Shown in pieces: positions 738 to 63,293 of a DNA stretch of 64,000 nucleotides (position 1 is the first letter of the stretch; each line of letters begins with the position of its first letter). Source of the stretch: a virus. The position numbers and the translations under genes were made by a program. The stretch lies in IMG/VR virus record IMGVR_UViG_3300028800_000012, positions 256 to 64,255 of that record; one strand, 5' to 3'. A model generated the notes under the pieces. That model had not been told where the DNA came from. It saw only the letters and a program-made list of their open reading frames with translations, and did not search any database.

Positions 738-1430
738 TTAAGCCTCGATTGGTTCGCGGACGGCTTGCCCGCCGATGGAGAACGCCCCGTAGGTGCCGTC
801 CTTCACCTTTTTCCAAATATCGTCGTCATGCACCTTGACGCCAACGATCCATCCCTCGCGATCGGCTTTGATGCCGAGCGACTTAGAGAGTTCGGATGTA
901 AGCGGGAATGAATGCAGCACTTCGCCGATTCCGCTGCCATCATGCATGGCCTTGGCGACTCTCGCATCGGCCATGAAATCTGTCGTGGCTTTTTCGAGTT
1001 CGGCAGGCGAAATCACATCGTCCTGCGTATCGACGACTGGCACGCCTTTTTCCGAAATCACGCTGGCCCAGCCATAGGCCATGCGGGACTCATCGTCGCC
1101 GACCTTGACGATCTGCGCCGATGCTTCCGCCTTGCTGGTATCGCACGGCGCGTTATACGGCTTGTCTTTCGGCTTCTTCTTGCCTGAACCCATCATGCCG
1201 TCGACATGCACATCGCCGCCGGTCGGGTTGTCTTTCAAAATCCATTTCTTGCCGGTCGGCGGCCGTTGCCAGGTCTTGCCGACTTCATCCCAAGCCTGCC
1301 GCACGCAATCGTTATGCTCGTAACCCATTTCGGCGGCTTGGTTGGCCGTATCGCACCAGACCTGCATCGCATCTGCCGGCAGCATCTTGGTCAGATGCGC
1401 CAGATTCCGATCATCGGCGGAATAGGTCAT
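738..1430 (-). CDS. prohead serine protease, XkdF-like, with an extra N-terminal domain
   Basis: 230 aa. The core KVGDDESRMAYGWASVISEKGVPVVDTQDDVISPAELEKATTDFM...GWIVGVKVHDDDIWKKVKDGTYGAFSIGG matches the XkdF-type phage protease pattern. It sits between the MuF-like and scaffold genes. Confidence 0.7.
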   Translation of the reverse strand: MTYSADDRNLAHLTKMLPADAMQVWCDTANQAAEMGYEHNDCVRQAWDEVGKTWQRPPTGKKWILKDNPTGGDVHVDGMMGSGKKKPKDKPYNAPCDTSKAEASAQIVKVGDDESRMAYGWASVISEKGVPVVDTQDDVISPAELEKATTDFMADARVAKAMHDGSGIGEVLHSFPLTSELSKSLGIKADREGWIVGVKVHDDDIWKKVKDGTYGAFSIGGQAVREPIEA

Positions 1431-1570
1431 TCAAAAGCCTCGAATATGGACGCCCAGAATGCGTCCCATCGTTCCAATTTGTACTGGCGAAACAAAAGCC
1501 GCGTGTAGAGGCGCATGCGGCGATACTCGGCGCAGTAGCCGTTCGGATCGCACCACCACAGCGCGCCCAT
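1427..1570 (-). CDS. small hypothetical protein (47 aa)
   Basis: ATG at 1568-1570. Its stop overlaps the protease start (ATGA). Sequence MGALWWCDPNGYCAEYRRMRLYTRLLFRQYKLERWDAFWASIFEAFE. It is below the size cut-off of the ORF track. Confidence 0.3.
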   Translation of the reverse strand: MGALWWCDPNGYCAEYRRMRLYTRLLFRQYKLERWDAFWASIFEAFE

Positions 1571-1719
1571 GCAATACCCGCCGCCTTTATTGCATTGCCT
1601 GCGGCATCGGTGCCGCCCTAGCCTCGCCGCATGTTCCGCGAAGCCGCCGCAATCTGTGCCCTGACCGCCGTATTCATGGCCGGCTGGTTCGCCGTAGGCA
1701 TTGCCTACCTGCTGTTCCT

Positions 1720-1944
1720 ATGAAGCGGCAAAGCAAGCCGTGGATGCGGCCACTCAACAAGGTAGCTGCGCCGACCTATGACGATCTTGTCCGCGCGCTC
1801 GGCGATCTCATTTCAGACTGCCACCGCTGGCGCATGTACGGGCATGCGCTCAACACCGCCGAGCACATCCACAACCGCGCCCGCGTCGCCAAGCTGCCTA
1901 GGCGAGCTACGCTCCCATCAGGCCAGCAAGGGCGGCTGATTTGA
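1720..1944 (+). CDS. hypothetical protein (74 aa) in an opposite-strand cassette
   Basis: ATG at 1720 overlaps the stop of a 30-aa transmembrane peptide ORF (1631-1723, MFREAAAICALTAVFMAGWFAVGIAYLLFL). It is in the same frame as track ORF 1459-1944. Confidence 0.3.
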   Translation: MKRQSKPWMRPLNKVAAPTYDDLVRALGDLISDCHRWRMYGHALNTAEHIHNRARVAKLPRRATLPSGQQGRLI

Positions 1945-2135
1945 AAGGACCGCTTAACGATGATCTGCCGCTATTGGAGCCGTTTGATACGGTTTTTGCT
2001 TTTCTCGCCGACATGCATGAACAGGTATCGGCACAGATCGCCGTCACAAAGAACCAGTCGGCCCTGGTTGTCCTAGAGCACGTCAAGCGGTCGCTAGAGG
2101 CGGCCGGCGTCGTGGTCCGGGAGATGGGCGGTTAG
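1941..2135 (+). CDS. hypothetical protein (64 aa)
   Basis: Track ORF. Its start overlaps the stop of the preceding plus-strand ORF. It converges on the MuF-like gene. Confidence 0.3.
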   Translation: MKGPLNDDLPLLEPFDTVFAFLADMHEQVSAQIAVTKNQSALVVLEHVKRSLEAAGVVVREMGG

Positions 2136-3250
2136 GCATCCTGCCTCTGTGCCGGTGCCCTGTAGCGGATCATCATGGCGCATCTGCAGCGGATCGTGTT
2201 CGCGGCGGTGCCGTTGGGGTCTCCGGGGAACATCAGCGGCCCTAATTCAGTCTTGAACGGTTCATTCAGACCAACTCCGCCTTCATTCAGCGACGGAATT
2301 GTCATGTGGGCGTGACGGACCCGGCTGTCGTGCGTGTAAATCCACTTCTTCCTCACGCCATCTGCGTCGACCTTGCCATCGGCGACGGCCTGCCGCCACA
2401 GTTGCACATTGCCCGCATTGACGGCGCGAATGGCTTCGGTTCTGGCGATCGTCTCCGAGCGGAATTTCAAGGTCCGCTGCCGATACCGTTCAACCAGCTT
2501 ATCGATGTAGTCCGGCGACAGTCGCTCGCCGCTGTCCACGGCATCGCTGATCGTGCCGTCAAAGCGCCGGTCGCGTAGCTGCCGCTGCAATGCGCCGGCA
2601 TCGAGGCTTTCCAATGCACGGCGATAGTTCAGGACCGCTTTCGTCTGCGACGGCGTAAGCCCGATGAATTGCCGCACGTCTCGCGCCACATCCAACGGAT
2701 TACGGCCAGCAGCAACGCCATCCGCAATAGCCAGACGAACAGAGGCCAGCGCACCCGCAGTAAGGCCGCGAATAAGCGCCATCTCATAGTTTTGCAGGTA
2801 TCGGACTGTCTCGGGATTGGTTATCCCGAAGTGGAATTGAACCTCGCCCGGCGCAAACGATGCCGATAGCGCCAGTGCCGCTTGCTGACCGGCCCAGACC
2901 GTCGCCGCTGTAGATGCGGCGCCGATCGGCTGCATGCCAGACGATACGAGCTGAGCATCCACAACGCCGATGGCTTCGGATACCCTACCCTGTTCAAGGA
3001 GGGTACGGATGCGCTCGATATCAACCTTGTCGGCCAGCCTATCCACGGCCTCGGTAAACGCGCGGCGGATACGGCTGGAAACCGTCGTCTGGTTGCTTAG
3101 GAGCCGTTCGATTTCCGCCTTGTCGGCAGAAGACGCCTTCGAAATGTCGGCGTTCGCATACGTCGCGGAATGTCTTCGAACGTTTACCCAACTTTGGTTT
3201 CTATGTACCCATCTTGGGTCGCGTTCAGACTTGGCGACGACGATCTGCAT
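2132..3250 (-). CDS. minor head protein, SPP1 gp7 / Mu F family
   Basis: 372 aa. The C-terminal signature WIYTHDSRVRHAHMTIPSLNEGGVGLNEPF...NTIRCRCAM is typical of the gp7/MuF head-morphogenesis domain. It lies downstream of the portal gene. Confidence 0.8.
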   Translation of the reverse strand: MQIVVAKSERDPRWVHRNQSWVNVRRHSATYANADISKASSADKAEIERLLSNQTTVSSRIRRAFTEAVDRLADKVDIERIRTLLEQGRVSEAIGVVDAQLVSSGMQPIGAASTAATVWAGQQAALALSASFAPGEVQFHFGITNPETVRYLQNYEMALIRGLTAGALASVRLAIADGVAAGRNPLDVARDVRQFIGLTPSQTKAVLNYRRALESLDAGALQRQLRDRRFDGTISDAVDSGERLSPDYIDKLVERYRQRTLKFRSETIARTEAIRAVNAGNVQLWRQAVADGKVDADGVRKKWIYTHDSRVRHAHMTIPSLNEGGVGLNEPFKTELGPLMFPGDPNGTAANTIRCRCAMMIRYRAPAQRQDA

Positions 3251-3339
3251 TTACGCAGTACTGCGCCACTATAACGATGATGCACGTTGCGCCGACCAGA
3301 GCGGCGATAAATTGAATCACTTCGGCCACGGCGATTGAC

Positions 3340-3543
3340 CTATTTCGTCCCGCTACTATTCGTTCCGCTCATGAAGTCGGCAGAGGCATCGCTACCGGCG
3401 TCTTCGCCTGACACGGGCCTGCTGCCAGAACGCGGCGGCGTATTCGCGTCGTCATCGCCGCCAACGCTCACGAACGTTAGGTTGCCACGCTGCCAAGTGA
3501 ACTTGTTTTCCGGCGAATAGCCGCCGACAGTGCCGGTCGTCAA
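3340..3543 (-). CDS. hypothetical protein (67 aa)
   Basis: Track ORF. Its start overlaps the portal stop. Confidence 0.35.
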   Translation of the reverse strand: MTTGTVGGYSPENKFTWQRGNLTFVSVGGDDDANTPPRSGSRPVSGEDAGSDASADFMSGTNSSGTK

Positions 3544-5669
3544 TGGATAACCTCCATAACGATCTTCCTCGGTGTCTTGCTGACGACACGGTATTTAGTT
3601 CCGCGGTTCAATAGTAGCTCCTTTTCCTCTGGGTGCTCAGACAGGCTAGGCATGTAGATAGCGCGGGTGCCCTTCGGCACGCGGATTTCAAGGGCCATCG
3701 CGCCGCCGCTGCGATGCATGGTCGAGGAAAAAGACTCCATCGCCTTCCGCGACAGAGACGTTGAGGTATAAGATTTGTCCATAAGAACGCCACCCGCGCC
3801 GATTGATCTCTGCATCGCCGCCCAACCCTCGGCGTCGATAGCGCGGTACACAACGATATCAGACGGCAACGCCGATCCCTTGAACGCTGAATCGATCTTG
3901 GAAATGATGCCAGACAGGCGCGGCCCTACCGCGTCGCCCTCACGAAAGTGAGCGTTGATATCCTCGAACTCTCCGCCAGAATATACCTGCAAGGCATCCT
4001 TTTCTGCGGCCCCAAGCTTGGACGTGAGAGCGGTTAGGACCGTATCCTGACCAATGAACTGGCCGCCCTGCTCTGTACCCTTCGGGCCGTGGAGTTGATT
4101 CGCCTTTGTCGTCGCCTCTGATTGTCCGCTGCCATCCTGCTGGAAGTAGGGGCCGGCATTCTGCGTCGCCTGTTGCGGATTGATCTCGGCAGGATTTTGG
4201 CTGACTCCCATGCCGTCGTCGTTGCCGGTTTGTTCAGCCACACCATTCGGCCCTAGCTGCGGCTGGAGTCCGGCATCTTCCGGGGGCGCCGGCATATCCG
4301 CGATCTCCGCCACGTATTCCGACAATTCCTGGTTCGGGAATAGCGGCGCACCAGCCGTAGCAAGCGCCTGCAGATACGCGCCGAACTCAGCCAGATCGAC
4401 CGGCGCGACACGGCCCGGCTTTAGTTCCGGCATCAGAGCGCGATCGATATTGTTGTACGACCAGATGCGCGGCAGCAGGAAGCGGTTGAGGACTTCCGCG
4501 ATCTGGTTGAGATAGGCTTCGCAGGCCCGCAGGAACAACTCGGACTTGTTCTTGGAGAGCGCGTAGCTGCCCTTCTGATCGCCGAGCATCATGAAATCTG
4601 CGAGTGCGCTACGGGCGATGTTTTTTTCGTGCCGCTCGACAACGGGGCCGGTATCAATGGCCCGTCGTCCGCCAGTCGAGAGCAATTTCACGTCGACAAT
4701 GCGCTGTGCCGACGGCGCTCCTGTTTGCGGATCGGGCCAGCAATCGGACGGAATGACAATGCCGCCCTGCTGGTTGAATTTTACGTCGCGGGCGACCTTC
4801 TTGTATTGCTCAAGAACGGCTTTATCGGTAGCCGATGCGTCCGACAGAAGATACTTGGCCGGGATTGAAACAACCGGCAACCCCGCCAGTTCGCGCTCGA
4901 TGCCGATCGCCTCGATTTCCTCGATCGTCTTGCGCAGATACCACGACTTATAGGCCGAGCGGAGAATTGACACGCCTTCCGGCGAGTTCTTCCGGCTTGT
5001 CGTGCGGAACAACAGAAGCCGCTCGATCGGGATGAATAGCAACTGCCCGCCAATCGGCGGTAATTGCCACATACCGGCGATGCCGCCGTCTTGCTGCATC
5101 TCCCATCGCAAGAGCGAGTCCTGCGATCGGATCGGCAGCTTGCGCACGCCAATGCGGCCGTCGTCGAACTTCGAGCGCAGCGCCGGGTCTTTCTGATCCG
5201 GACCCATGCGGCGCTTCAAGACGATTTCCAACACCGACCAGCCGAAGGTCAGCATGGACATGACTTCGCCAATCACATCCGGGAACGGATGCGACATATC
5301 GTCTAACAACGATTCGACGAACTCGGCTTCTTTTTCGGCTTCGCCGCTATCGTCCGCCGGCTCAACCCGCCAATCCACAGCCCGCAGAATGAGCGTGATT
5401 GCCGTGAGCGTGGCGCAGACAGTGGCGTCGCCTTCCGCCATCTGGCGATAAACGCGCCAGGCGTTCGGGCCGCGCAACTCCGGCAAGTATTCTTCCGACA
5501 GATAGCCGGAGAATACCTTGAGACCGGAAACGCCGATCTCGCCGAATGCCTTGGCGTTCGGGTCGCCGGTTAAACCGGCCATATTGCCGAATGCGCCTGT
5601 CGGCGGCTGCGGCGGTCCCGGAGGTGCCACTTTGGCCACGTCGCCGCTCTCAGTGGTCGACGCTGCCAA
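3540..5669 (-). CDS. portal protein fused to a C-terminal ADP-ribosyltransferase domain
   Basis: 709 aa, located directly after the large terminase. The N-terminal 460 aa or so is portal-like (WRVYRQMAEGDATVCATLTAITLILRAVDWRVEP). A Q/G/P-rich linker covers aa 460-545. The C-terminus carries an R-S-E triad: VVYR(609)AID, YTS(636)TS, EE(682)KE(684)LLLNRGTKYRV. Confidence 0.8.
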   Translation of the reverse strand: MAASTTESGDVAKVAPPGPPQPPTGAFGNMAGLTGDPNAKAFGEIGVSGLKVFSGYLSEEYLPELRGPNAWRVYRQMAEGDATVCATLTAITLILRAVDWRVEPADDSGEAEKEAEFVESLLDDMSHPFPDVIGEVMSMLTFGWSVLEIVLKRRMGPDQKDPALRSKFDDGRIGVRKLPIRSQDSLLRWEMQQDGGIAGMWQLPPIGGQLLFIPIERLLLFRTTSRKNSPEGVSILRSAYKSWYLRKTIEEIEAIGIERELAGLPVVSIPAKYLLSDASATDKAVLEQYKKVARDVKFNQQGGIVIPSDCWPDPQTGAPSAQRIVDVKLLSTGGRRAIDTGPVVERHEKNIARSALADFMMLGDQKGSYALSKNKSELFLRACEAYLNQIAEVLNRFLLPRIWSYNNIDRALMPELKPGRVAPVDLAEFGAYLQALATAGAPLFPNQELSEYVAEIADMPAPPEDAGLQPQLGPNGVAEQTGNDDGMGVSQNPAEINPQQATQNAGPYFQQDGSGQSEATTKANQLHGPKGTEQGGQFIGQDTVLTALTSKLGAAEKDALQVYSGGEFEDINAHFREGDAVGPRLSGIISKIDSAFKGSALPSDIVVYRAIDAEGWAAMQRSIGAGGVLMDKSYTSTSLSRKAMESFSSTMHRSGGAMALEIRVPKGTRAIYMPSLSEHPEEKELLLNRGTKYRVVSKTPRKIVMEVIH

Positions 5670-5678
5670 TCTTGTCTC

Positions 5679-7046
5679 CTACCAAATCCTCGGGGCGGCG
5701 CCGCCGACTTGCACGGGACCGCCGATATTCACTTCGGCAACAGCGCCGACCATCAATTCCGTCAGCGCCCACACCATCGCGTCCAATCGGTCGGGCGATG
5801 CCTTGCCAGTCAGCGGCTCCCACGTGCAAAGCTGGTCCTCCAGCTCCGGGAATGCGCCGGCATGACTGACTCGGCCCTGCTCATAGAGCGCCGATACCGG
5901 CTCCGCTCTGGCCTGCTTGCCTTTACTGGCATGGACGATGCGGACGGGAATGTTGGGCCGCACCGTTTCCAAGGTGTGCCGCACCATTTCGCCGCCTTGG
6001 TTGCCTTCGGCGACGATGCGGTCGGCCTTTAATTCGTCATAGAGGGCAATAGCGCGGCGAGCCCATGCGTCGGGGGTGTACCGGCCGGACACGTCTCGTA
6101 AAACGTATCCATGACCATTAGAATCGACTCCAGCGGCAACGATGCCGGTGAGTGCCGATGTATCCCCTGATGTAGCGGCCGGGTCGATTGCCACCACGAT
6201 CCGAACCAGATCGGGTGCTTTCGCCACCCTCGCCCGTTCGATCATGGCGCGTGTCCACAGCGCGCCTTCGACTTCCTCGATTAGCTCGCCGTCCAGCTCC
6301 TGCCGGCCAAGCCGCGTCCCTTCGTATTTGGACACGATCTGGGACAGGAAGGTCGGCGCAAGATTCGCCTTGTTGGCGTCGGTCTTGGCCCGTGTGACGA
6401 CGCAACGCGGCGAGCGCAGCAATTCCCGCAAGAGCGGGATCGGGCGCGGCGTTGTCGTTATGACGGCCTGCGGAGCGGCGCCGAGGCGAAGCCCAAACAT
6501 CGCCATGTCCCAGGCGTCGTTCGGGTCGCCATCGTTCCACGCGGCGACTTCATCGGCCCATATGCGGTCATGCTGCGGACCGCGAAGGCGGTTCGGCTCC
6601 TCTGCCGAGTAGCCGTGCGCTACAGCACCGTTTGCCCATGTCAGGCGATGGCGCTTTGACGGCTCGTAGATCGGCAGGCCGAGCGGCCGTCCGTAAATAT
6701 CCTTGTCGTTACGCCAACAGACCGAAAGGATGCCGGAAGGCCCCTCGATCATAACGTCTCGAATATCGCCCGCCGTGGGCGCTATAAGACCAATGTGCCG
6801 CGCGCCGCTTTTTACTTGGTCGCGGACCCATTCGGCCCCGGAGCGTGTCTTGCCGGCACCGCGCCCAGCCAGAAGAAGCCAGTAGTCCCAGCCCGTCTCC
6901 CCATCGTTTGGGGGCGGCGGTAACTGGTCTGTTCTGGCGAAGAATTCCCAATCGTATAGAAGCGCATCGGCTTCAGCGTCAGTCAGTTCCGCTAGAGCCG
7001 CCGACCTTTGATCCTGGCTCAGTCTGGCGAGAGATGAAATGTGCAA
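5679..7046 (-). CDS. terL: terminase large subunit
   Basis: 455 aa. Walker A motif LLLAGRGAGKTRSG, with a nuclease-half pattern downstream. It lies between the small terminase and the portal. Confidence 0.85.
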   Translation of the reverse strand: MHISSLARLSQDQRSAALAELTDAEADALLYDWEFFARTDQLPPPPNDGETGWDYWLLLAGRGAGKTRSGAEWVRDQVKSGARHIGLIAPTAGDIRDVMIEGPSGILSVCWRNDKDIYGRPLGLPIYEPSKRHRLTWANGAVAHGYSAEEPNRLRGPQHDRIWADEVAAWNDGDPNDAWDMAMFGLRLGAAPQAVITTTPRPIPLLRELLRSPRCVVTRAKTDANKANLAPTFLSQIVSKYEGTRLGRQELDGELIEEVEGALWTRAMIERARVAKAPDLVRIVVAIDPAATSGDTSALTGIVAAGVDSNGHGYVLRDVSGRYTPDAWARRAIALYDELKADRIVAEGNQGGEMVRHTLETVRPNIPVRIVHASKGKQARAEPVSALYEQGRVSHAGAFPELEDQLCTWEPLTGKASPDRLDAMVWALTELMVGAVAEVNIGGPVQVGGAAPRIW

Positions 7047-7617
7047 GGCGGTCCTTCGCGCCCGTCACCTCAACGGGGATTGCCCCGCCGTCGGGGCCAC
7101 TGTGCTCCAAGCGATCCTTAAACATGCCGAGGTGGCGGCCGAGATCGACCAATGCTGCGCGCTTGTCGTGCATTTTGAGGCTCAGGCCCCCCGTCGGGCT
7201 CTGCCGAACCTCTGAAATCGCCGCGGCAGTGTCTTCGTCTATGTCTTTGGCGCTAATGAGTTGGACATGGTTGTTGTGGAGATGCTTGACGACGAGAACG
7301 TCCCCGCCGTCCGGATTATCCGTCTCCTCGACCAACGAGCCTTGCCAATCCACTGCCTTGCGGATGTCGGCGAACCCTATCTTGGCAAGTTCTGAAACAA
7401 CCCGCTCGATGGTAACGCCGGCCTTAGCCGCCGATGCGGCCAAAATCTCATCGACCCTCGCCCGGACCTTAACATTCTTTAACAGACGAGAGGCTGCGGC
7501 CTCGGCCGAGTTTCCCGCTGCCTTATAGCCGGCGAGAACGTAGGATTCTGACGCCGGCCGACCTTTCGCCACCTCTTGAGCGAATATCTCATGCCGCGCA
7601 TTGGGGAGTACGGCCAC
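6979..7617 (-). CDS. terS: terminase small subunit
   Basis: 212 aa. The N-terminus ARHEIFAQEVAKGRPASESYVLAGYKA...AEAAASRLLKNVKVRARVDEI matches the P27/Terminase_2-type small subunit pattern. Confidence 0.7.
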   Translation of the reverse strand: MAVLPNARHEIFAQEVAKGRPASESYVLAGYKAAGNSAEAAASRLLKNVKVRARVDEILAASAAKAGVTIERVVSELAKIGFADIRKAVDWQGSLVEETDNPDGGDVLVVKHLHNNHVQLISAKDIDEDTAAAISEVRQSPTGGLSLKMHDKRAALVDLGRHLGMFKDRLEHSGPDGGAIPVEVTGAKDRLAHFISRQTEPGSKVGGSSGTD

Positions 7618-9481: not shown

Positions 9482-10219
9482 CTAGACAGCATCCTTCCAA
9501 AGCCAGATCGGCTCAGACGTGATGCTGGTTGTCGTGTTCGGCAGATACTTCCCGTCGATCTTGTCGGGGCGTACGTACTTCGCGAGGAAGTCCACGCGGC
9601 CCTCGCGCTCGACACGCCACACCGCGCCCTCCACGTCCTCTTTCGATCCGTGCTGCCCGTATTGCCCGAGCAGCGCCAGCGCGTTCTCAACGGACAGGGG
9701 CTCGGCGCTATCGCTAATCAGGTGCGCGGTCGGAATCTCGGCTACGGCGCACCGCTGCGCGAACTCGTCCCGAAGGATTCGCTTGCCCTCGCGGAAGATG
9801 TCGAAGGCGATGTAGGGCGCGAAGCGCGGATGCGCCGCGTCGTACAGCGTGCCGTGCGCCATCGCCATCCACTCACCGCAGATGCGCTCTCCAGGGTGCA
9901 GCAGATCGGCAAACACGATGCGGCGCTTCTTGACGTAGGGCGCGAAGGCTTTCAGGTGCTCATAAAGGGCGTCGGCCGCGCGATAGCCGGCGCGGGATAG
10001 GGCGACGATCTCCCCGTCGATGTTGGCAACCGACATGCACGCGCCGTCCAGCTTTTCCGTAACGACAATTCGGTCGCCCTTGCGTGGTTTCTCGCAGCAG
10101 ATGCGGGCCTGCCCTTCGTGTACGTGCCAGTCTCCGGGACCGAGACGCGAGTTCGGCAGATGGCCGATGGAGCCGTACGCTTTCGATTTCAGCGGTTTGG
10201 CTGGCTTCACATTCATCAC
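9482..10219 (-). CDS. RNA ligase-family nucleotidyltransferase
   Basis: 245 aa. Motif I is VTEKLDGACMSV (KxDG), motif IV-like is EGAVWRV, and motif V-like is FLAKYVRPDK. Confidence 0.65.
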   Translation of the reverse strand: MMNVKPAKPLKSKAYGSIGHLPNSRLGPGDWHVHEGQARICCEKPRKGDRIVVTEKLDGACMSVANIDGEIVALSRAGYRAADALYEHLKAFAPYVKKRRIVFADLLHPGERICGEWMAMAHGTLYDAAHPRFAPYIAFDIFREGKRILRDEFAQRCAVAEIPTAHLISDSAEPLSVENALALLGQYGQHGSKEDVEGAVWRVEREGRVDFLAKYVRPDKIDGKYLPNTTTSITSEPIWLWKDAV

Positions 10220-20523: not shown

Positions 20524-21555
20524 ATGTTGATGCCAGAAACTCTTGATCTTTTCAGCGGAGCTGTCGGCGGATGGTCGCTCGGAATGCACCGCGCCGGATT
20601 TCGCACCGTCGCGGCCTGCGAAGCCGACCCATGGAGACGCGCCGTCTATGCCCACAACAATCCGGGAATCCCGATCTACGACGATGTCAGAACCGTCACG
20701 GCAGATCGACTTCGGATCGATCTTGGAGAGCTTCCGCCCGTCATCGTCGGAAGCCCTCCCTGTCAGGACGCCAGCAGCGCCAACACAAAGGGGCGCGGCG
20801 TCGATGGCGAGCGCACGGGCCTCTTCTTCGAAGCAATCCGCATCGTCCGAGAATGCCGACCTCGCTGGGCGGCTTTTGAGAACAGCCCTATGCTCCGAAC
20901 TCGGGGCTATGACCGGCTCTACGATGCGTTTCAGCAAGCGGGATACGCCTGCTGGCCGCTCGTGGTGGGTGCTGACGACCTCGAAGCCCCGCACAAACGA
21001 AAGCGCGTCTGGATCATCGCTTTCAACGCCGAAGGCGTCCGACCCTTATGCTGGCGGTCATGGCGACACCGGCTGGAAGGGATCGCTGGCGCATCAGCTT
21101 CGCGGCACGATCCTGACGCCGACATCGATCCAGGGCGAGTTTGGGCACCGCCTTCGAACGCTGACCGAGACGGCGTTGCCGGACAACGCGCGGCCGAAGC
21201 GCCCGAGGAATCTGGACATAGGCAAACTGCCAACGCCGACAGCACGGGATCATCGCTCGGGGAAAGCCTCGGAGGCCACGCGCGCGCGCAATTCGAGGCC
21301 CTTGAGCGAGCAGTTGGACCAGCGGTCCATGCTTGGAACGGCGGCGTTGCTCGGCATCTCGGAATGGCTCATGGGCTTGCCGCCCGGCTGGCTGACATCC
21401 GCGTGCCTGACCACAAATATCCCGGAGCCACCATCAACGCCGCGAAGGCGTGCATCTCCGCGCACGGCGACGCCATCCTCCCGCAAATCGCGGAAGCCAT
21501 CGGACGAAGCATCCTGAGAACCGAAGCGGCGCTGGCCGCCGTTTCAGGACATTGA
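20524..21555 (+). CDS. DNA (cytosine-5)-methyltransferase with an apparent frame-switched middle section
   Basis: Frame 1 carries motif I LDLFSGAVGG, motif IV GSPPCQDAS, motif VI ENSP, motif VIII PHKRKRVWIIA, and the C-terminal GDAILPQIAEAIG. Between about 21040 and 21400, the typical KLPTPTARDHRSG and SEWLMGLPPGW motifs and a higher third-position GC are in frame 2 (track ORF 20543-21517). Confidence 0.75.
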   Translation: MLMPETLDLFSGAVGGWSLGMHRAGFRTVAACEADPWRRAVYAHNNPGIPIYDDVRTVTADRLRIDLGELPPVIVGSPPCQDASSANTKGRGVDGERTGLFFEAIRIVRECRPRWAAFENSPMLRTRGYDRLYDAFQQAGYACWPLVVGADDLEAPHKRKRVWIIAFNAEGVRPLCWRSWRHRLEGIAGASASRHDPDADIDPGRVWAPPSNADRDGVAGQRAAEAPEESGHRQTANADSTGSSLGESLGGHARAQFEALERAVGPAVHAWNGGVARHLGMAHGLAARLADIRVPDHKYPGATINAAKACISAHGDAILPQIAEAIGRSILRTEAALAAVSGH

Positions 21556-33176: not shown

Positions 33177-33545
33177 ATGAACGAACCGCGCATAGACGAT
33201 ACCGACCCTATCACGCTGCAAGAGGCGTGCGAGATAGTATTCCGGGGAACGTGCACGGTTTACACCTTGCGGGCGGAAGCGGCGCGCGGCAGGCTTGAGA
33301 TAGCCAAGATCGGGAAGCGCTACTATACGACCCTCCGCGCTGCCCGTGGCCTGTACGTCAAATGCCTCGAAGGAAATCCCCGCCCCGGCTCTATCTTGAC
33401 CCAAAGCGAAAGCAGTGGGTCATCCGCGACGGCGCAGACTTCATCCGCACGGGCCGCTCTGAGGCAGAGCGTGACAGCGCTGAAAGGGTCCTCGCAAAGT
33501 ACCTCGGGCAGAAGCATCAGCCGGAGCGTGGCCCGTCGCCACTGA
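33177..33545 (+). CDS. excisionase / HTH DNA-binding protein (tentative)
   Basis: ITLQEACEIVFRGTCTVYTLRAEAARGRLEIAKIGKRYYTTLRA follows the excisionase-type HTH pattern. It lies immediately upstream of the integrase, and its 3' part overlaps it. Confidence 0.5.
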   Translation: MNEPRIDDTDPITLQEACEIVFRGTCTVYTLRAEAARGRLEIAKIGKRYYTTLRAARGLYVKCLEGNPRPGSILTQSESSGSSATAQTSSARAALRQSVTALKGSSQSTSGRSISRSVARRH

Positions 33546-34357
33546 TAGCCGATATGCTGCTGGCCTATACCAGAGAGCACGTCCCGCACACGCGATCGGC
33601 AGCAAGTGCGGCCTATCACATCGGTAGCCTGGAGGCGTGGTGGGGCGACAAGCGATTGGCCGACGTGACCCCGGAAAACTGCCGCGCGTATGCGACCGGC
33701 CGCAAGGCTTACGGCGCCCGGCGCGACCTTGAGGTCCTGCGAGCTGCAATCAACCACTGGCACAGGCACCACGGCCCGCTGCCGGCGGTCCCGACCGTAA
33801 TCCTCCCGGAGAAAGCCGCCCCGCGCGAGCGATGGTTGACCCGTTCGGAGGCGGCGAAGCTGCTATGGGCGGCCCGGCGCACTCCGCACCTTGCCCGGTT
33901 TATCCTGCTCGGGCTCTACACAGGCTCCCGCTCGGGCGTGATTCTGGGGGCCAAGTGGGACCAGATTGACCTTGAAAAAGGGCTGATGCGCCGCATTGCC
34001 CTTGGGAAGGCCCAGGATAAGCGCAAGCGCGCTCCGACAGTTCGGCTCGGAAAACGGATTTTAACGCATCTCCGCCGCTGGAAACGGCACGATGATCCCC
34101 GAGTCGGGTATCTGTGCCATTACAACGGTGCGCGGGTGCAGAAGATGCGCCGGTCGTGGGCTGCGGCACGGAAGCGGGCCAAGCTAGACGCCACGGTGAC
34201 GCCGCACGTTCTGCGGCATACCAGGGCGACATGGCTGATGCAGGCCGGGATCGATGTATGGGAGGCCGCTGGGCACTTGGGGATGACGCCGGAGACGCTG
34301 CAAAACGTCTATGGAAAACATCACCCCGACTACCAAAAGCGGGCCGCGGAGGTGTAG
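33362..34357 (+). CDS. int: tyrosine integrase
   Basis: 331 aa. Catalytic context: GLYTGSRSGVILG (Arg), HVLRHTRATWLMQ (H-x-x-R), HLGMTPETLQNVYGKH (His...Tyr). Confidence 0.85.
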   Translation: MPRRKSPPRLYLDPKRKQWVIRDGADFIRTGRSEAERDSAERVLAKYLGQKHQPERGPSPLIADMLLAYTREHVPHTRSAASAAYHIGSLEAWWGDKRLADVTPENCRAYATGRKAYGARRDLEVLRAAINHWHRHHGPLPAVPTVILPEKAAPRERWLTRSEAAKLLWAARRTPHLARFILLGLYTGSRSGVILGAKWDQIDLEKGLMRRIALGKAQDKRKRAPTVRLGKRILTHLRRWKRHDDPRVGYLCHYNGARVQKMRRSWAAARKRAKLDATVTPHVLRHTRATWLMQAGIDVWEAAGHLGMTPETLQNVYGKHHPDYQKRAAEV

Positions 34358-58776: not shown

Positions 58777-59599
58777 GCAAGCCTCACTTTCGCCGCGTCA
58801 TAGACCTCATCGGCCCCGATCCGCGCCATGCAGTCTCGACAATGGTCGCAAGGAGCAAGATTCCCGCAACCCAGATCATCGCCGGTAAACATGTTCGTAT
58901 GCACGTCGTAGCCTGTTACGCGCGGCGAAATAAACCCGCCGAAGATCACCACCGCAGCGATACCAAGCGCCGCCGCTGCATGATGCAGCCCGCCTTCTGG
59001 TCCGACATACAATTGCGCCCGCTCAAGCGACGCGCATGCGAGCCGGAATGTAGCGGCCTTGATTGTTCTGACACCGGCTAGCCGATGCGGCCCCGTGTCG
59101 AACTGCGCCACGTCGTGCCCGTCCATCGCCAACTGATCGGCGACTTCCTGATACCTGTTGACCGGCCACTGCTTATTCGGCGCCGAATGCTTGGTGTTCG
59201 GCTCGATGATGACGTCGGCATCGCCGAACGACTTCGCCCATTCCCGCTCGGCGTCGGTCAGATAGAGTTCGCCGGGGATAGCCTTGAAGCCTGGATTAAA
59301 TATCCATCGATCGCCATCGATCCGGCAGTAAGCCCGCGCGCCGGGCGCATGGATGATCCAGTCTATCGATTCGCCGGTATCCTCCGCGCCGGGAGGCGCG
59401 ACGTTCGGATTGCCGCGGTAGATGTCATGGGCATTGCGGTGCCAGATGATGCGGCGGCAATTAACGTCACTGAAGGCGACGCGCTTGCCGTGCTTGGCTG
59501 CGCCTTTGGCAAGGCCGGAGCCAAGGATCTCGTCGCCGAAGCCCGTGACACGACCTCAATTATAGGCGACGCATTGTTCGCATGGCGTTCCGCGCACAT
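58773..59599 (-). CDS. GT9 (heptosyltransferase-like) glycosyltransferase; the start is only reachable through a frame change
   Basis: The GT9-like frame is open from immediately after the rSAM TGA (59556-59558) to 58773: ...VTGFGDEILGSGLAKGAAKHGKRVAF...NKQWPVNRYQEVADQL...LYVGPEGGLHHAAAALGIAAVVIFGG. It has no ATG/GTG/TTG for 141 codons. ATG 59597-59599 opens the other frame as MCAERHANNASPIIEVV. Confidence 0.6.
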
Positions 59600-60506
59600 C
59601 CTTTTTCAGATGCGCCGCACGCAATGCCGTGAATGCCGCCGAATTCCACGCATCCATAAACGGCTGCTTAGTCAGATCGCCCATCGCCCATGATTTATTC
59701 GCGTCGAAGCAGCAGGCGGATAGCTTCCCGTCGGCCGTGACATGGCCTTCCGTGAAAGCTGACCAGCAAGGCAATGGCTCTCTTAACGCCCCGAGCCTGC
59801 CTTGATTGCCGGCGGTCGGCCGGTATCCGAGTTCTTCTTCCCGCGCCGTCGCAAATGCACCCATCGAGTACAAGGGCAGCCAGTAATGCTCGTCCACATA
59901 CGGCACGACATGCTCGGCCAGGAGATTTTCCATCTTGGCCTGTTGCTCGCCGTCATACCGGATCGAAGACGCATAGAGTCCGGTCGGATACCCCCTCGCC
60001 TCGCGCAATTCCCATGCGGCTTTGATATTGCTCAGTGCGATCGGATACAGCCGGCGGTCAACCGCCATGACGTGTTCGAACTGGTCTTCATCCGCCGCAT
60101 TTACCGACCATTTGATCGAGTCGATGCCGGCGCGCATGAGTTCGTCGACCCAGCGCGGCTTTGCCAGTGACGCATTCGACGTGAGGAATACATACGGCAT
60201 CCCCACGTCCTGCTTGAGGTATTCGACGCAGGCGACAAGCAGTTTGGGATTCATCATGCTTTCGCCGAGGAAGAAGCACCCGACCTCCTCGACGCCGGCA
60301 TCGCGCATTTCGCGTGTGATTCGCTTGAAAAACTCGAAATCCATGTCGGACTTCGGCTGTTCCTCGCGCGTCCGTAGAGCGCAGAAGCCGCAGCGATAGT
60401 TACATCGCGGCGATATTTCGATCTTGACCGAGCGCGGCGCGGGACATTCGGCCTTGAGATATGCCGGGGGAATTTTTGTGACGGCATCGATGCGTTCGGT
60501 AATCAT
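59556..60506 (-). CDS. radical SAM / SPASM-domain enzyme
   Basis: CNYRCGFC is the CxxxCxxC cluster. The C-terminal Cys-rich SPASM-like region reads CWSAF...LSACCFD...GTPCEQC. The start is taken at ATG 60504-60506, which overlaps the upstream stop. The track ORF starts at 60539. Confidence 0.75.
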   Translation of the reverse strand: MITERIDAVTKIPPAYLKAECPAPRSVKIEISPRCNYRCGFCALRTREEQPKSDMDFEFFKRITREMRDAGVEEVGCFFLGESMMNPKLLVACVEYLKQDVGMPYVFLTSNASLAKPRWVDELMRAGIDSIKWSVNAADEDQFEHVMAVDRRLYPIALSNIKAAWELREARGYPTGLYASSIRYDGEQQAKMENLLAEHVVPYVDEHYWLPLYSMGAFATAREEELGYRPTAGNQGRLGALREPLPCWSAFTEGHVTADGKLSACCFDANKSWAMGDLTKQPFMDAWNSAAFTALRAAHLKKDVRGTPCEQCVAYN

Positions 60507-61243
60507 CGCGCCGCCCACTCCGCCAATGTTGAACGCCATTCATCGGCGAATGGAACGTCCTCGTATCCCGCCATGCAGGGAGAACCCAACGTATGGTGCA
60601 CGACCTTCGGGCTTTCGATCGGCTCGCTTTCGCCGGCCAGCCAATTCCATTCCGGAGCGAGTTCGCCGATTTGGTCGTCTTTCAGCCAGCAGAGCCGATG
60701 CAGATCGCGGCCGGGAAGCGTATTGACGAGTTCGGGCGTGAGCGCCTTGTTTGCCGTTCGGTCGCAATCAAAAACGACCAAGCTGCTCCAGTTTTTGCGG
60801 GCGTATTTGGTCTGCGCCTGCCCGTCCATTTTGACGGTTGAATGCGGCTCATGCTGATGCTTGACGCACCATGCGGCCTTTGGGCTTTCCTGCCGCTCGA
60901 TCCATTGGAACAGGCGGCACAGGTTTTCCCTGACCAGCATGTCGCAGTCCATGAACAGCGCCAGCCCATGACCGGCGAGATGCGGAACAAGAAAGCGAGA
61001 TATCGAGAACTGCGTCGAGCAAGGAGCGCCGCTGATCTCGTCCCACAACTGCCACTGACCTTCGCTGTTCAAGCGCCGGTCGGTGGGTCGGCGGTAGAGC
61101 CCCCGCTTTTTCAAATCATCCAGCACCAGGCCATACACCGGCACCGGAAGCGTCAGTCTCTTGTTGATCGAGTGGCGGGCTACAGCGAACGCGGCGGCTT
61201 CACGCGGATCGAAGCCGATCCAGATACTCCAAGCCCTGCTCAA
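60503..61243 (-). CDS. GT8-like glycosyltransferase (DxD)
   Basis: 246 aa, TTG start. IWIGFDPREAAAFAVARHSI and FSISRFLVPHLAGHGLALFMDCDMLV follow the GT8 pattern. Confidence 0.55.
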   Translation of the reverse strand: MSRAWSIWIGFDPREAAAFAVARHSINKRLTLPVPVYGLVLDDLKKRGLYRRPTDRRLNSEGQWQLWDEISGAPCSTQFSISRFLVPHLAGHGLALFMDCDMLVRENLCRLFQWIERQESPKAAWCVKHQHEPHSTVKMDGQAQTKYARKNWSSLVVFDCDRTANKALTPELVNTLPGRDLHRLCWLKDDQIGELAPEWNWLAGESEPIESPKVVHHTLGSPCMAGYEDVPFADEWRSTLAEWAAR

Positions 61244-61874
61244 TCGTCACCTTTGGAAAAGCGTCAACGGTCGATATCGGCGAGGCATTCAAAACCTCGA
61301 CGCCGCTGCGTTTGAGTTGGGGGAGACAGGCGTTGAAATTGTCGCCCCAGTTTTTCCAGTACCGGGCGTTTTGTCCCGCCGAGTACCAGTAGTAGTTTTC
61401 TAATTTGTAGTGATGCCCGCCCTGCTCGGTGTAATCGAAGCCGAACAGAACGATACGCTTTGCGCCTTTGAGATAGGCGAGATTGACAGCGCCGAACCCG
61501 GAATTGCCGCCGCTTTGAATGACGGCGGGGTCATCGCTTAAGCCCTCGAAACGGGAGAGCCGAAGATACTTCGCCCGCTCGATCAGCGGACATTCAAGCG
61601 GAAACTCGTATTCCTGCCCGGTCGGAGCGAGGAAGATTTCCGCCCGGCACTCATGCCGCAATTTGTCGGCCTGCCGGCATATCCACCGCCGGTCCAATGC
61701 GAACACCGCATCGGCAAACGGCATTTCCCACACCGCTTCCTTGACGGCGAGAACGCGAATGCCGGGAATGTGGAAGCGGCGGAAGTCGATATCTTTGAGG
61801 CTCGGACCCGTGCCGACGATTGCCAGCGGTTTGTCCGACCAATCCGGGTCGCCGATGCTCGTAAACGGCAGCAT
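61200..61874 (-). CDS. DUF115 / Maf-MptE-like putative glycosyltransferase
   Basis: Start at ATG 61872-61874. LAIVGTGPSLKDID...VLAVKEAV...ALDRRW and GGNSGFGAVNLAYLKGAKRIVLFGFD follow the DUF115 pattern. Confidence 0.5.
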   Translation of the reverse strand: MLPFTSIGDPDWSDKPLAIVGTGPSLKDIDFRRFHIPGIRVLAVKEAVWEMPFADAVFALDRRWICRQADKLRHECRAEIFLAPTGQEYEFPLECPLIERAKYLRLSRFEGLSDDPAVIQSGGNSGFGAVNLAYLKGAKRIVLFGFDYTEQGGHHYKLENYYWYSAGQNARYWKNWGDNFNACLPQLKRSGVEVLNASPISTVDAFPKVTIEQGLEYLDRLRSA

Positions 61875-62263
61875 CAGGACTTCGGCTTGTTCTTCGAACC
61901 TTTCGGTCGGCCGCCCTTGCGCCTGACGGGTACATCCGCCGCCATGCACACGGTCTGCGCAGCCTCTTGCGGCGCCGCTTCAACAGCCAGAGGCGGCGCA
62001 AATGGCCGGTCGTTCTGCGTGATGTAATTCCAGTCGGCTTCTTCGGCCCGCCTGATCCAGCGCCGCTCGTAATGCTCTTTCAGCATCCGAGTGGAGAATT
62101 GAGACTTGTCGACAAGATCGCCGACACGCGGATGATATCCATTGACGGTGAAGCCTTTCGGCCACGCGCCATAGACGTAATCCGCGTCTCGATCGAATGG
62201 TAAGAGCCAGTACGGGGCGTTCGGTGATGGCACCCTAGGCGTCCCGCACTGTGTTTGTGCCAC
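61874..62263 (-). CDS. hypothetical protein with a C-terminal AT-hook
   Basis: 129 aa, ending in VRRKGGRPKGSKNKPKS. The GRP core with basic flanks is the canonical AT-hook form. Confidence 0.5.
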   Translation of the reverse strand: MAQTQCGTPRVPSPNAPYWLLPFDRDADYVYGAWPKGFTVNGYHPRVGDLVDKSQFSTRMLKEHYERRWIRRAEEADWNYITQNDRPFAPPLAVEAAPQEAAQTVCMAADVPVRRKGGRPKGSKNKPKS

Positions 62264-62276
62264 GTATCAAGGCCGA

Positions 62277-63293
62277 TTAGGCGATGATCGTGTTGAAAAA
62301 CACGCCGCACTCAGCCGCGACGAGTTTTTGCGCATACGCCTGTTGGATTTCCAGCCGGTCGGACTCAAGATGCTCTATCCGGAACTTCTTGATGCGCTGA
62401 CCGGCGGGTCCGGCGCCAGTGAAGCCGACCCAGTTGAACGTGTAGCCTCCAGACGGAGACTGCAGGCTCGCGGCAGGAGCCGCATACACAAGCAGCGCCG
62501 ACTTGCCGCCGATGAACGCATTCGACTCGTTCGTGTTCAGCGTGGTCGAATTGCTTTCCGCGCCCGTATTCTTGACGGCATCCATGACGAGGATTTCGTC
62601 AATTTCCATCAGCGCGGCGACGGCCTGCTTGGTGATGATGGCCGGCGCACCCGGAGACGCGCCGTACTTGATGCGGTCCGTGATCGAGCCGTGCTCGGAC
62701 AGCTTCGACCAGACCTGACGGCCCATGACCAACTTGTTCGCCCGGAAGGTGGACGACAGGTGGATGCGGTCGTTGTAGGTCTTCACATCAGCGACGGGGG
62801 TGGCGTTGGAATCGTTCCACTGAAGGACGGTATTTCCAGCCGGGGAAGCCGAGACGCCGGTCACGTCGACCGACGCGCCGGTCCAGATGCCGGTGGTGAA
62901 GTAATTCGACGCCCAGTTGACCTCACGGTTGATGAGCGCCTTGTTCGCAAGGAAGTTCGTTGTATCGCGGTCCATATCGAGCGGCGAATCCGCATTCGAA
63001 CGAACCTGATCTTCCACATCCTTGTGCAAGGCCCACACGTCGGCGTAATACGTCGGCGTGTTGTCGATCCTCCAGCCATCGCCGGCCGATTCCGAACCGG
63101 GCGCACGCTTCTTCATCGAGTCGCGGTTGAGGTCGCCGCGCGAATAGACGAAATAGCGGTCGGACTGTTTCTGTACGGGAACGGCCGGGAACACTTTGTC
63201 GGCGACAAAGGCGTCCGGCTTCTGCATGAACGCGACGGAGATGTTCGTCAAAATCGCATTGACGTGGACATCGCCAGCGACAGGGTTAGCCAT
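62277..63293 (-). CDS. major capsid protein
   Basis: 338 aa, immediately downstream of the decoration-like gene, with a strong ribosome-binding site (GGGAGCAGTACAA-ATG). The call rests on composition and position. Confidence 0.75.
   Translation of the reverse strand: MANPVAGDVHVNAILTNISVAFMQKPDAFVADKVFPAVPVQKQSDRYFVYSRGDLNRDSMKKRAPGSESAGDGWRIDNTPTYYADVWALHKDVEDQVRSNADSPLDMDRDTTNFLANKALINREVNWASNYFTTGIWTGASVDVTGVSASPAGNTVLQWNDSNATPVADVKTYNDRIHLSSTFRANKLVMGRQVWSKLSEHGSITDRIKYGASPGAPAIITKQAVAALMEIDEILVMDAVKNTGAESNSTTLNTNESNAFIGGKSALLVYAAPAASLQSPSGGYTFNWVGFTGAGPAGQRIKKFRIEHLESDRLEIQQAYAQKLVAAECGVFFNTIIA

Follow-up and report, generated by a model that had tools for sequence, protein, structure and literature searches.

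A Mu-family phage portal protein carrying a C-terminal C3/VIP2-type ADP-ribosyltransferase domain

MuF polymorphic toxins with an ADP-ribosyltransferase (ART) domain have been described in phages, for example the EFV toxin of an Enterococcus faecalis V583 prophage (PMC5576092; Zhang et al. 2012, PMC3482391), and Jamet et al. found cargo-bearing MuF proteins to be confined to temperate phages (PMC5576092). In phage T4, the enzyme Alt is a late product that travels in the head, is injected together with the DNA and modifies host proteins on arginine (PMC5512222). Enzymes have also been noted on the portal itself: Iyer et al. 2017 list PBECR, 2H and InPase (e.g. BcepF1.124) fusions to portals and predict that these are injected (PMC5512222), injection is predicted for portal- and MuF-fused effectors alike (PMC5512222, PMC9503650), and fusions of effectors and ARTs to portals are already on record in Iyer et al. 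2017 and 2022. The portal of phage Mu, gp29, has lost its last 124 residues in the virion structure, which was attributed to cleavage by protease I (PMC11915804). Here we describe a portal-ART fusion in a 64,000-nucleotide stretch of viral DNA, positions 256 to 64,255 of IMG/VR record IMGVR_UViG_3300028800_000012. This whole stretch is called the window, and its coordinates are used below unless another contig is named. The fusion gene occupies 3540-5669 on the minus strand, and its product combines a Mu-type portal (PF06074) with a C3/VIP2-type ART domain (PF03496).

Portal core and ADP-ribosyltransferase domain

The fusion gene is a single open reading frame (ORF) of 709 codons with a TTG start and a stop codon at 3540-3542, and its product is identical to a protein (P0001) on a JGI contig of 64,255 bp. 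Residues ~40-478 (4236-5552, minus strand) form the portal core with clip, stem, wing and crown, as judged from Pfam, the fold model and Foldseek. The Portal_Mu family (PF06074) matches residues 71-443 with an E-value (E) of 1.1e-32 and 114.2 bits against a cut-off of 23.9, the portal part matches phrog_113 in PHROGs (E 2e-76), and in the full-length structure model the predicted local distance difference test score (pLDDT) exceeds 90 over most of residues 70-460. The best Foldseek matches of the core are the solved portals of Pakpunavirus P7-1, Bas63 and Sf14, followed by those of G20c, P23-45 and Mu, with template modelling (TM) scores of 0.6-0.75 when normalised to the target. From its family membership we take the window portal to be a dodecameric ring at the unique capsid vertex. 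When compared at the codon level with the homologous fusion on contig L002, the core (residues 40-478) is 80% identical in amino acid sequence, with a ratio of nonsynonymous to synonymous substitution rates (dN/dS) of 0.106.

The C3/VIP2-type mono-ADP-ribosyltransferase domain covers residues 548-709 (3543-4028, minus strand) and is identified by its Pfam profile, its PDB matches, its structure model and its pattern of selection. An earlier note on this DNA had marked 3543-4292, which corresponds to residues 460-709 and takes in the last part of the portal core together with the linker and the ART domain. ADPrib_exo_Tox (PF03496) matches residues 548-698 (E 3.7e-25, 88.8 bits against a cut-off of 23.4), PHROGs places the ART part in phrog_3895 and in the 'Alt-like' phrog_802 (E 2e-12 for the latter), and a phmmer search of the PDB finds Certhrax, VIP2, C3larvin and Lmo0066. 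In an AlphaFold2 model of residues 510-709 the domain has a pLDDT of 80-95, preceded by 32 disordered residues, and the top 50 Foldseek matches in the PDB are all C3/VIP2-type ARTs, with E down to 2.8e-12. The best of these is Lmo0066 from an ART-ARH toxin-immunity pair (8za7; TM 0.72, normalised to the target), and further matches include Certhrax, VIP2, C3larvin, CDTa, iota Ia and C3bot. A search of the viral structure library BFVD finds the ART fold on MuF, minor-capsid and head-morphogenesis fusions, in T4-like Alt enzymes and in giant-virus ARTs; one 1201-residue protein among its ART-fold matches is named 'Phage portal protein, HK97'.

The catalytic residues are in place, and their coordinates have been verified on the minus strand: Arg609 in VVYR (3843-3845), which aligns with the arginine of ITVYR in VIP2; the NAD-binding motif S636-T637-S638 (3756-3764), which aligns with STS of VIP2 and Certhrax; and the ExE motif E682-K-E684 of the ADP-ribosylating turn-turn loop (3618-3626), which aligns with EKE of VIP2. 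Set against VIP2 (1qs2) and Certhrax (4fk7), IVVYR corresponds to ITVYR, YTSTSLS to YMSTSLS and EEKELLL to SEKEILL, so that the three motifs quoted in the earlier note (VVYR, YT-STS-LS and E-E-K-E) are all present and fall on the catalytic motifs of these enzymes. In an alignment (A4) of the window ART with two other portal-ART proteins and two stand-alone relatives, the arginine, the STS and the second glutamate (E684) are invariant, and the first glutamate position is E or Q, with Q in place of E682 in P0076 and P0122. We take this first ExE position to track arginine versus asparagine target specificity in this ART family; on its motifs, and on such general knowledge of the family for the specificity, the window enzyme is an active-looking ART of the ExE, arginine type.

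One could regard the fusion as an accidental, non-functional or decaying recombination product, or as an artefact of assembly or gene calling, given how rare the architecture is (see below) and that a recombination scar adjoins it. We consider this highly improbable. Two further independent contigs from different samples have the portal-ART architecture: L002, from another metagenome, whose protein P0002 is 76% identical to the window protein, and L001, whose protein P0076 is 42% identical to it. The ORF is thus uninterrupted in three independent contigs, as well as in a second assembly of the same phage, which argues that the fusion is no assembly artefact. The ART of P0076 is of the QxE type and only 24% identical to the window ART, indicating that this portal family has taken up ARTs of different subtypes in independent events. 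Lastly, the window and L002 ARTs (residues 548-709) are 85% identical with a dN/dS of ~0.03, a value that is approximate because dS is saturated. Such a ratio across heavily diverged synonymous sites effectively refutes decay and, together with the intact catalytic residues, shows that the ART is a functional, selected part of the protein. The portal with a C-terminal R-S-E ART of the C3/VIP2 type that the earlier note had proposed is therefore upheld by profile, motif, fold and selection; the structure prediction yields the expected ART fold, and its triad is conserved in homologues save for the E or Q at the first glutamate.

The architecture is rare in every collection that we searched. PF03496 occurs on 3 of the 120 best portal homologues, the query included, and in 50,697 deposited phage genomes no record spans the portal and the ART part together. 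In 111 phage records a similar ART is found on MuF, on proteins named 'capsid maturation protease and VIP2-like toxin', or as a separate gene of the head module. A HMMER search showed that among the 150 best representatives with this ART type only P0002 has this portal; 15 of 47 mid-length ART carriers have MuF domains or are head-protein fusions, and a portal domain, PF04860, is present in 2. Ten carriers with a length of 600-850 residues were considered as portal fusions and are instead tandem ARTs, MuF-ART or C39-ART proteins. A profile scan of the 80 best portal loci in species-representative genomes gave no direct portal-ART fusion either, and the candidates L007, L039 and L040 proved to have a separate portal gene followed by a MuF-ART gene. 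A single-protein scan of genome contigs gave no match, a scan of IMG/VR with the ART cassette gave one weak locus and no close relative, and an ART-only query of a word-indexed protein collection gave two weak matches only. The earlier note had named ARTs on MuF proteins as a known arrangement, and MuF-ART is indeed the usual arrangement in the relatives.

L001 carries an ART on both of its adjacent head genes, with a QxE domain on the portal (868-3000, plus strand of that contig) and an ExE domain on MuF (3004-5025, plus strand; PF04233 with PF01129/PF03496), which suggests from the motifs that two ARTs of different specificity may be packaged together. The closest relatives of the window ART also include proteins of 2000-4000 residues with up to nine tandem ART modules (e.g. 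P0140 with 3371 residues and P0125 with 3254; P0123-P0141 and others).

Tether, junction motif and cassette

The portal core and the ART domain are joined by a variable, disordered tether at residues 479-526 (4092-4235, minus strand), delimited by pLDDT, composition and codon comparison. In the full-length model pLDDT falls below 50 over residues 479-549, so that ~70 residues are predicted to be disordered. The linker had been called Q/G/P-rich; it is rich in glutamine and glycine (12 Q and 11 G among 69 residues), but with only 4 P it is not rich in proline. Between the window and L002 the tether segment is 32% identical, with a proportion of nonsynonymous differences (pN) of 0.55 and a saturated dS that leaves dN/dS incomputable, and on this comparison it is essentially unconstrained.

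Directly before the ART stands a junction motif, TTKANQLHGPKGTEQGGQFIG, at residues 520-540 (4050-4112, minus strand), recognised by counts of its motif class and by codon comparison. It is a long variant of a module-boundary motif, NHDxxGRF / [QH]PRDxxG[RKQ][FW] (compare QPRDPKGSPTGGQW), whose class can be written as [KR][FY][ND]x[NSD]-(NHD or [QH]PRD)-xx-G[RKQ][FW] followed by a Gly/Ser-rich stretch. In portals with C-terminal extensions the motif precedes each cargo module, as [FY]N[EPQ]NHDxxGRF, as [FY]D[EP]S[KQ][HQ]PRDxxGRW or as long variants like QPRDPKGSPTGGQW. Strict matches number 28 in the portal homologues (in 19 of the 120) and 59 in the carriers of related ARTs (in 33 of 149), a total of 87 against 0 in shuffled sequences. 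In the giant multi-ART proteins it recurs every ~200 residues (nine times in P0140, seven times in P0262), P0029 has four copies, and it lies within the first 10-30 residues of some stand-alone proteins (P0147, P0205, P0228, P0238, P0248 and P0260). Residues 527-547 are 95% identical between the window and L002 despite a proportion of synonymous differences (pS) of 0.58, with a dN/dS of ~0.02, and thus form a constrained island in an otherwise free linker. The motif was not found in the neighbouring MuF-ART of L001, which has a proline-rich linker, and a literature search, including a keyword search of the polyvalent-protein paper, found no description of it.

Since cargo that is covalently fused to the portal needs no targeting signal, the conservation of the motif would suit a site of processing or release better than a tag for packaging. 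We tentatively propose, as a possibility short of an even chance, that it is a general cargo-release or processing signal, placed at every portal-cargo and multi-ART module boundary and at the N-terminus of stand-alone head cargo, and cut inside the capsid by the prohead protease or autocatalytically. If so, this Mu-family portal clade would be a 12-slot launcher of swappable, pre-made counter-defence enzymes (ART, Acb1, kinase, GNAT), and the motif would offer a sequence tag for finding injected phage effectors genome-wide, including in metagenomes.

The sister portals carry other cargo at the same position. Most of the 120 best portal homologues have 440-510 residues, and a minority have C-terminal extensions that contain PF03496, PF23474, PF06414/PF13671 (Zeta-like kinase), GNAT, an N-terminal fragment of TopIB, or modules with no Pfam match. 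Portals that are 50-70% identical thus bear ART, Acb1, Zeta/AAA_33, GNAT, TopIB-N or unclassified modules, and on this distribution we regard the clade as a polymorphic effector carrier. PF23474 is the phosphodiesterase Acb1, which acts against the cyclic-oligonucleotide-based anti-phage signalling system (CBASS), and it is found, for instance, on P0011 from Bradyrhizobium sp. Arg62 (E 2e-37). Either Acb1 or a Zeta-toxin-like/AAA_33 kinase occupies the C-terminal position in P0011, P0012, P0023, P0044, P0050, P0053 and P0065, and also in P0029-P0031, P0033, P0045 and P0060. P0050 combines Zeta and Acb1 in one protein, and P0050 and P0023 qualify as polyvalent proteins. If Acb1 portals are packaged, they would supply a pre-made, virion-borne anti-CBASS activity.

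Downstream of the fusion gene lies a 67-residue ORF (3340-3543, minus strand), taken from the ORF list and supported by its homology to an 85-residue ORF on L002 (2324-2581, plus strand of that contig; E 8e-10). Its TTG start overlaps the stop codon of the portal-ART gene and GGAGG stands 7 nucleotides upstream; in both lineages GGAGG and a start codon (TTG or ATG) are kept, and the ORF is translationally coupled. The origin of its C-terminal half can be traced. A 79%-identical portal-only relative (P0003) ends in ...DADASFMSGNASGTK, and the C-terminal half of the 67-residue ORF is this ancestral portal tail (...FMSG..SGTK; ...SDASADFMSGTNSSGTK). At the DNA level, the 3' part of the L002 ORF is near-identical to the 3' end of the portal gene on L003. 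This agreement of protein and DNA shows that a cassette was inserted: a unit comprising tether, motif, ART and the start of the small ORF took the place of, or broke into, the 3' end of an ordinary portal gene. The N-terminal sequence GGYSxxxKFTWQRGxLT of the small ORF is common only to the window and L002, and the L002 version has an inserted CxxC...CxxC (zinc-ribbon-like) segment. On the few sites available, pN/pS of the small ORF is ~0.4, indicating moderate to weak constraint. The 67-residue ORF matches no known family, and its only relatives found are the L002 ORF and an identical copy, P0272, on an ENA contig of 64,759 bp.

The cassette structure is reminiscent of polymorphic toxin loci, and we have weighed the strict form of this idea, namely that particles released by lysogens deliver a growth-inhibiting ART to competitors and that a cognate immunity protein, possibly the 67-residue ORF, protects the producer. 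In its favour are the polymorphic C-terminal domains on a conserved carrier, the displaced 3' remnant, which by analogy resembles the C-terminal remnants and orphan modules left in toxin loci, the translational coupling of the small ORF with its ribosome-binding site and start codon conserved in both lineages, the fact that the best structural match is the toxin of a toxin-immunity pair (8za7), and the MuF-toxin model of Jamet et al. (PMC5576092). However, the conserved half of the small ORF is old portal tail, its remaining ~25 residues are weakly constrained and have no homologues, and L001 has no small ORF at all, its portal-ART gene being directly followed by the MuF gene with an ART of its own. 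A role of the 67-residue ORF as ART immunity protein is therefore unlikely. Furthermore, no ADP-ribose hydrolase (ARH), macrodomain or NADAR gene was found among the 81 phage ORFs scanned, and sister cargo such as Acb1 and GNAT are counter-defence enzymes rather than killers. Taken together, we consider a strict toxin-immunity system distinctly improbable. Because the sister portals carry Acb1, GNAT and kinase, and no immunity or ADP-ribose-hydrolase gene was found, the ART domain looks like an early host-takeover or counter-defence effector, and 'toxin' may be the wrong word for it.

Proposed packaging and release, and the phage

The reading that we favour, with moderate confidence, is that the portal acquired the ART by cassette insertion and that the ART is packaged by way of the portal, freed, injected with the DNA and used to ADP-ribosylate host arginines early in infection. 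Portal C-termini lie in the crown and face the capsid interior, and up to 12 ARTs would thereby be brought into each prohead with no separate targeting signal. The XkdF-like protease would cut in the tether or at the junction motif while the head matures, in the manner attributed to protease I on the Mu portal. The freed domain of ~19-21 kDa would then be ejected with the DNA through portal and tail, like T4 Alt, and at the very start of infection it would modify arginine residues of the new host, on one protein or several, favouring takeover or blunting defence. Release by the head protease and co-injection are thus proposed by analogy, with the C-terminal loss of Mu gp29 and with T4 Alt. The earlier note had likewise suggested up to 12 copies and either co-injection or liberation by the XkdF-like protease, and the disordered tether and the loss reported for Mu gp29 lend these ideas indirect support. 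That the ring could bear such cargo is suggested by T4, whose proheads tolerate gp20 fused to green fluorescent protein (GFP) in 4-6 of the 12 portal subunits (PMC10893049), so that globular C-terminal additions can be accommodated.

Several points weigh against this proposal. Without cleavage, a domain tethered to the portal cannot leave the capsid, and packaging might suffer from having twelve globular domains close to the crown; the GFP portals that were described as packaging-competent in T4 were only partly substituted, which hints at steric limits (PMC10893049). We infer cleavage, packaging, ejection and enzymatic activity, as well as the specificity of the XkdF-like protease for tether or motif, and no copy of the motif was found elsewhere in the phage, for example in other expected substrates of the protease. 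The step from ExE to arginine draws on general knowledge of the family, and the dN/dS of the ART segment is approximate given its saturated dS.

The chief alternative is that the ART is never freed. It would instead act late in the producer cell, either up to and during the assembly of heads or from its place on the portal, and modify host or phage proteins such as terminase, portal-sensing defences or RNA polymerase; the fusion would serve co-expression and localisation only. Phages offer parallels, since the portal gp8 of T7 acts in the infected cytoplasm against RelA and SpoT, by a moonlighting surface rather than a fused domain (PMC13483052), and the T4 ARTs ModA and ModB act without being packaged. 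Iyer et al. 2022 suggest that ARTs encoded near packaging genes could counter immunity aimed at portal or terminase, and the cleavage site in the fusion is putative. We nevertheless consider non-release unlikely, though less so than a strict toxin, because a ~70-residue flexible tether with a strongly constrained boundary motif is more easily explained by a need for release, and a late-acting enzyme needs no fusion to a structural protein. In addition, sister cargo such as Acb1 would be of greatest benefit if it were in place ahead of the host signal, and the precedent in the Mu family is the removal of the C-terminus.

The genomic setting of the fusion agrees with a virion role. The head module, all on the minus strand, runs in the order small terminase (6979-7617; PF03592, E 4e-23), large terminase (5679-7046; PF03237 and PF17289), which lies directly upstream of the portal gene, portal-ART, the 67-residue ORF, MuF (2132-3250; phrog_3517, E 2.7e-79) and an XkdF-like prohead protease of the Peptidase_S78_2 family (738-1430; PF14550, E 7.8e-17). 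In L003, L004 and L005, too, the portal gene is flanked by the large terminase gene on one side and by the MuF and protease genes on the other. The gp7-like MuF head morphogenesis protein of 372 residues carries no cargo; its MuF domain (PF04233, residues 235-360) is C-terminal with no extra domain, in line with the earlier note, which had called the gene toxin-free. The fusion is encoded among the virion and late genes of a terminase-portal phage, a setting by which polyvalent proteins are recognised.

The window is the genome of a temperate tailed phage of ~64 kb. A tyrosine integrase (33362-34357, plus strand; PF00589, E 1e-15) together with CI-like (HTH_3 and Peptidase_S24) and CII (Phage_CP76) genes elsewhere in the window indicates the temperate lifestyle, which matches the confinement of cargo-bearing MuF proteins to temperate phages (PMC5576092). 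The host is probably alphaproteobacterial. The same phage was assembled twice at near-equal length, on the JGI contig of 64,255 bp and the ENA contig of 64,759 bp, which suggests that the window is close to a complete genome.

Other genes of the window deserve mention in their own right. The part of the structural module that separates the major capsid gene (62277-63293) from the tail genes holds a radical SAM/SPASM protein and a weak MptE-like match (59556-60539 and 61200-61949, both minus strand), and an FkbM-type methyltransferase and an acyltransferase_3 are encoded in the window as well; these are unusual passengers for a head-tail module. The portal-borne ART is also accompanied by a sizeable set for anti-restriction and nucleic-acid repair, comprising an RNA ligase, a C5 cytosine methylase, an MT-A70 methylase, a dCMP/cytidine deaminase and a Lar restriction-alleviation protein, with coordinates that include 9482-10219 (minus strand) and 20524-21555 (plus strand).

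The loading of proteins into heads and their delivery with the DNA are understood for only a few model phages, and an enzyme fused to the portal has a fixed copy number at a known position, so that loading, cleavage on maturation and ejection could all be tested in a single protein. If the ART is delivered, the phage would arrive armed with a host-modifying enzyme, as its sister phages would with Acb1 against CBASS. This bears on how temperate phages of soil alphaproteobacteria overcome defence in the first minute of infection, and the arrangement might be of use in engineering phages to carry protein payloads.

Comparison with described systems

MuF-ART toxins resemble the window fusion in several ways: an ART of class PF03496 is attached C-terminally to a structural protein of the head interior whose gene neighbours those for terminase and portal, the phages are temperate, the cargo varies between close homologues, and delivery with the DNA is predicted; L007, L039 and L001 even show canonical MuF-ART genes beside related portals. 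In contrast to these toxins, the carrier here is the portal and MuF is separate and free of cargo, 12 copies per virion are expected where 1-2 are reported for SPP1 gp7 (PMC5576092), and the tether has a junction motif that is absent from the MuF-ART of L001. With polymorphic toxin systems at large (Zhang 2012, Jamet 2017), the locus shares a conserved N-terminal carrier whose C-terminal domains differ among close homologues, and a C-terminus replaced by recombination with a displaced fragment downstream (3340-3543, and the L002 ORF).

The Arthrobacter phage proteins annotated as 'capsid maturation protease and VIP2-like ADP-ribosyltransferase toxin' (gene 4 or 5) have a related ART (~30% identity) on a head-assembly protein encoded right after the portal; there, the carrier is a MuF or protease polypeptide rather than the portal, and the hosts are Actinobacteria.

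T4 Alt is an R-S-E ART like that of the window, which matches the 'Alt-like' phrog_802 (E 2e-12) and, in BFVD, T4-like RNA polymerase ADP-ribosyltransferases. Alt is directed to the scaffolding core, and the gp21 protease trims it; a head holds ~40 copies. It is a separate protein, whereas the ART here is covalently part of the portal and would be incorporated at fixed stoichiometry. Mu gp29 belongs to the same Pfam portal family and offers the precedent for removing a C-terminal extension of the portal during maturation. It differs in that no enzymatic function is reported for its C-terminal segment and that the protease families are not the same, and the sequence relationship is distant (16% identity in Foldseek).

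The portal-effector fusions of Iyer et al. follow the same architectural idea, and packaging via the structural domain and early injection are likewise predicted for them; Acb1, a 2H protein, on the sister portals falls into their class of '2H fused to portal'. Compared with the polyvalent proteins of Iyer 2017, which have at least two disparate effector domains, the window protein has one effector and a structural domain. The Iyer papers contain no analysis of this Mu-family clade, of a cassette-replacement scar or of a boundary motif, and no experiment. Thus, the architecture described here is rare and had already been predicted computationally, as had its function in delivery; what this locus adds is the scar left by cassette replacement, the boundary motif and, on portals of this clade, a polymorphic set of cargo that includes Acb1, while its novelty is otherwise modest.

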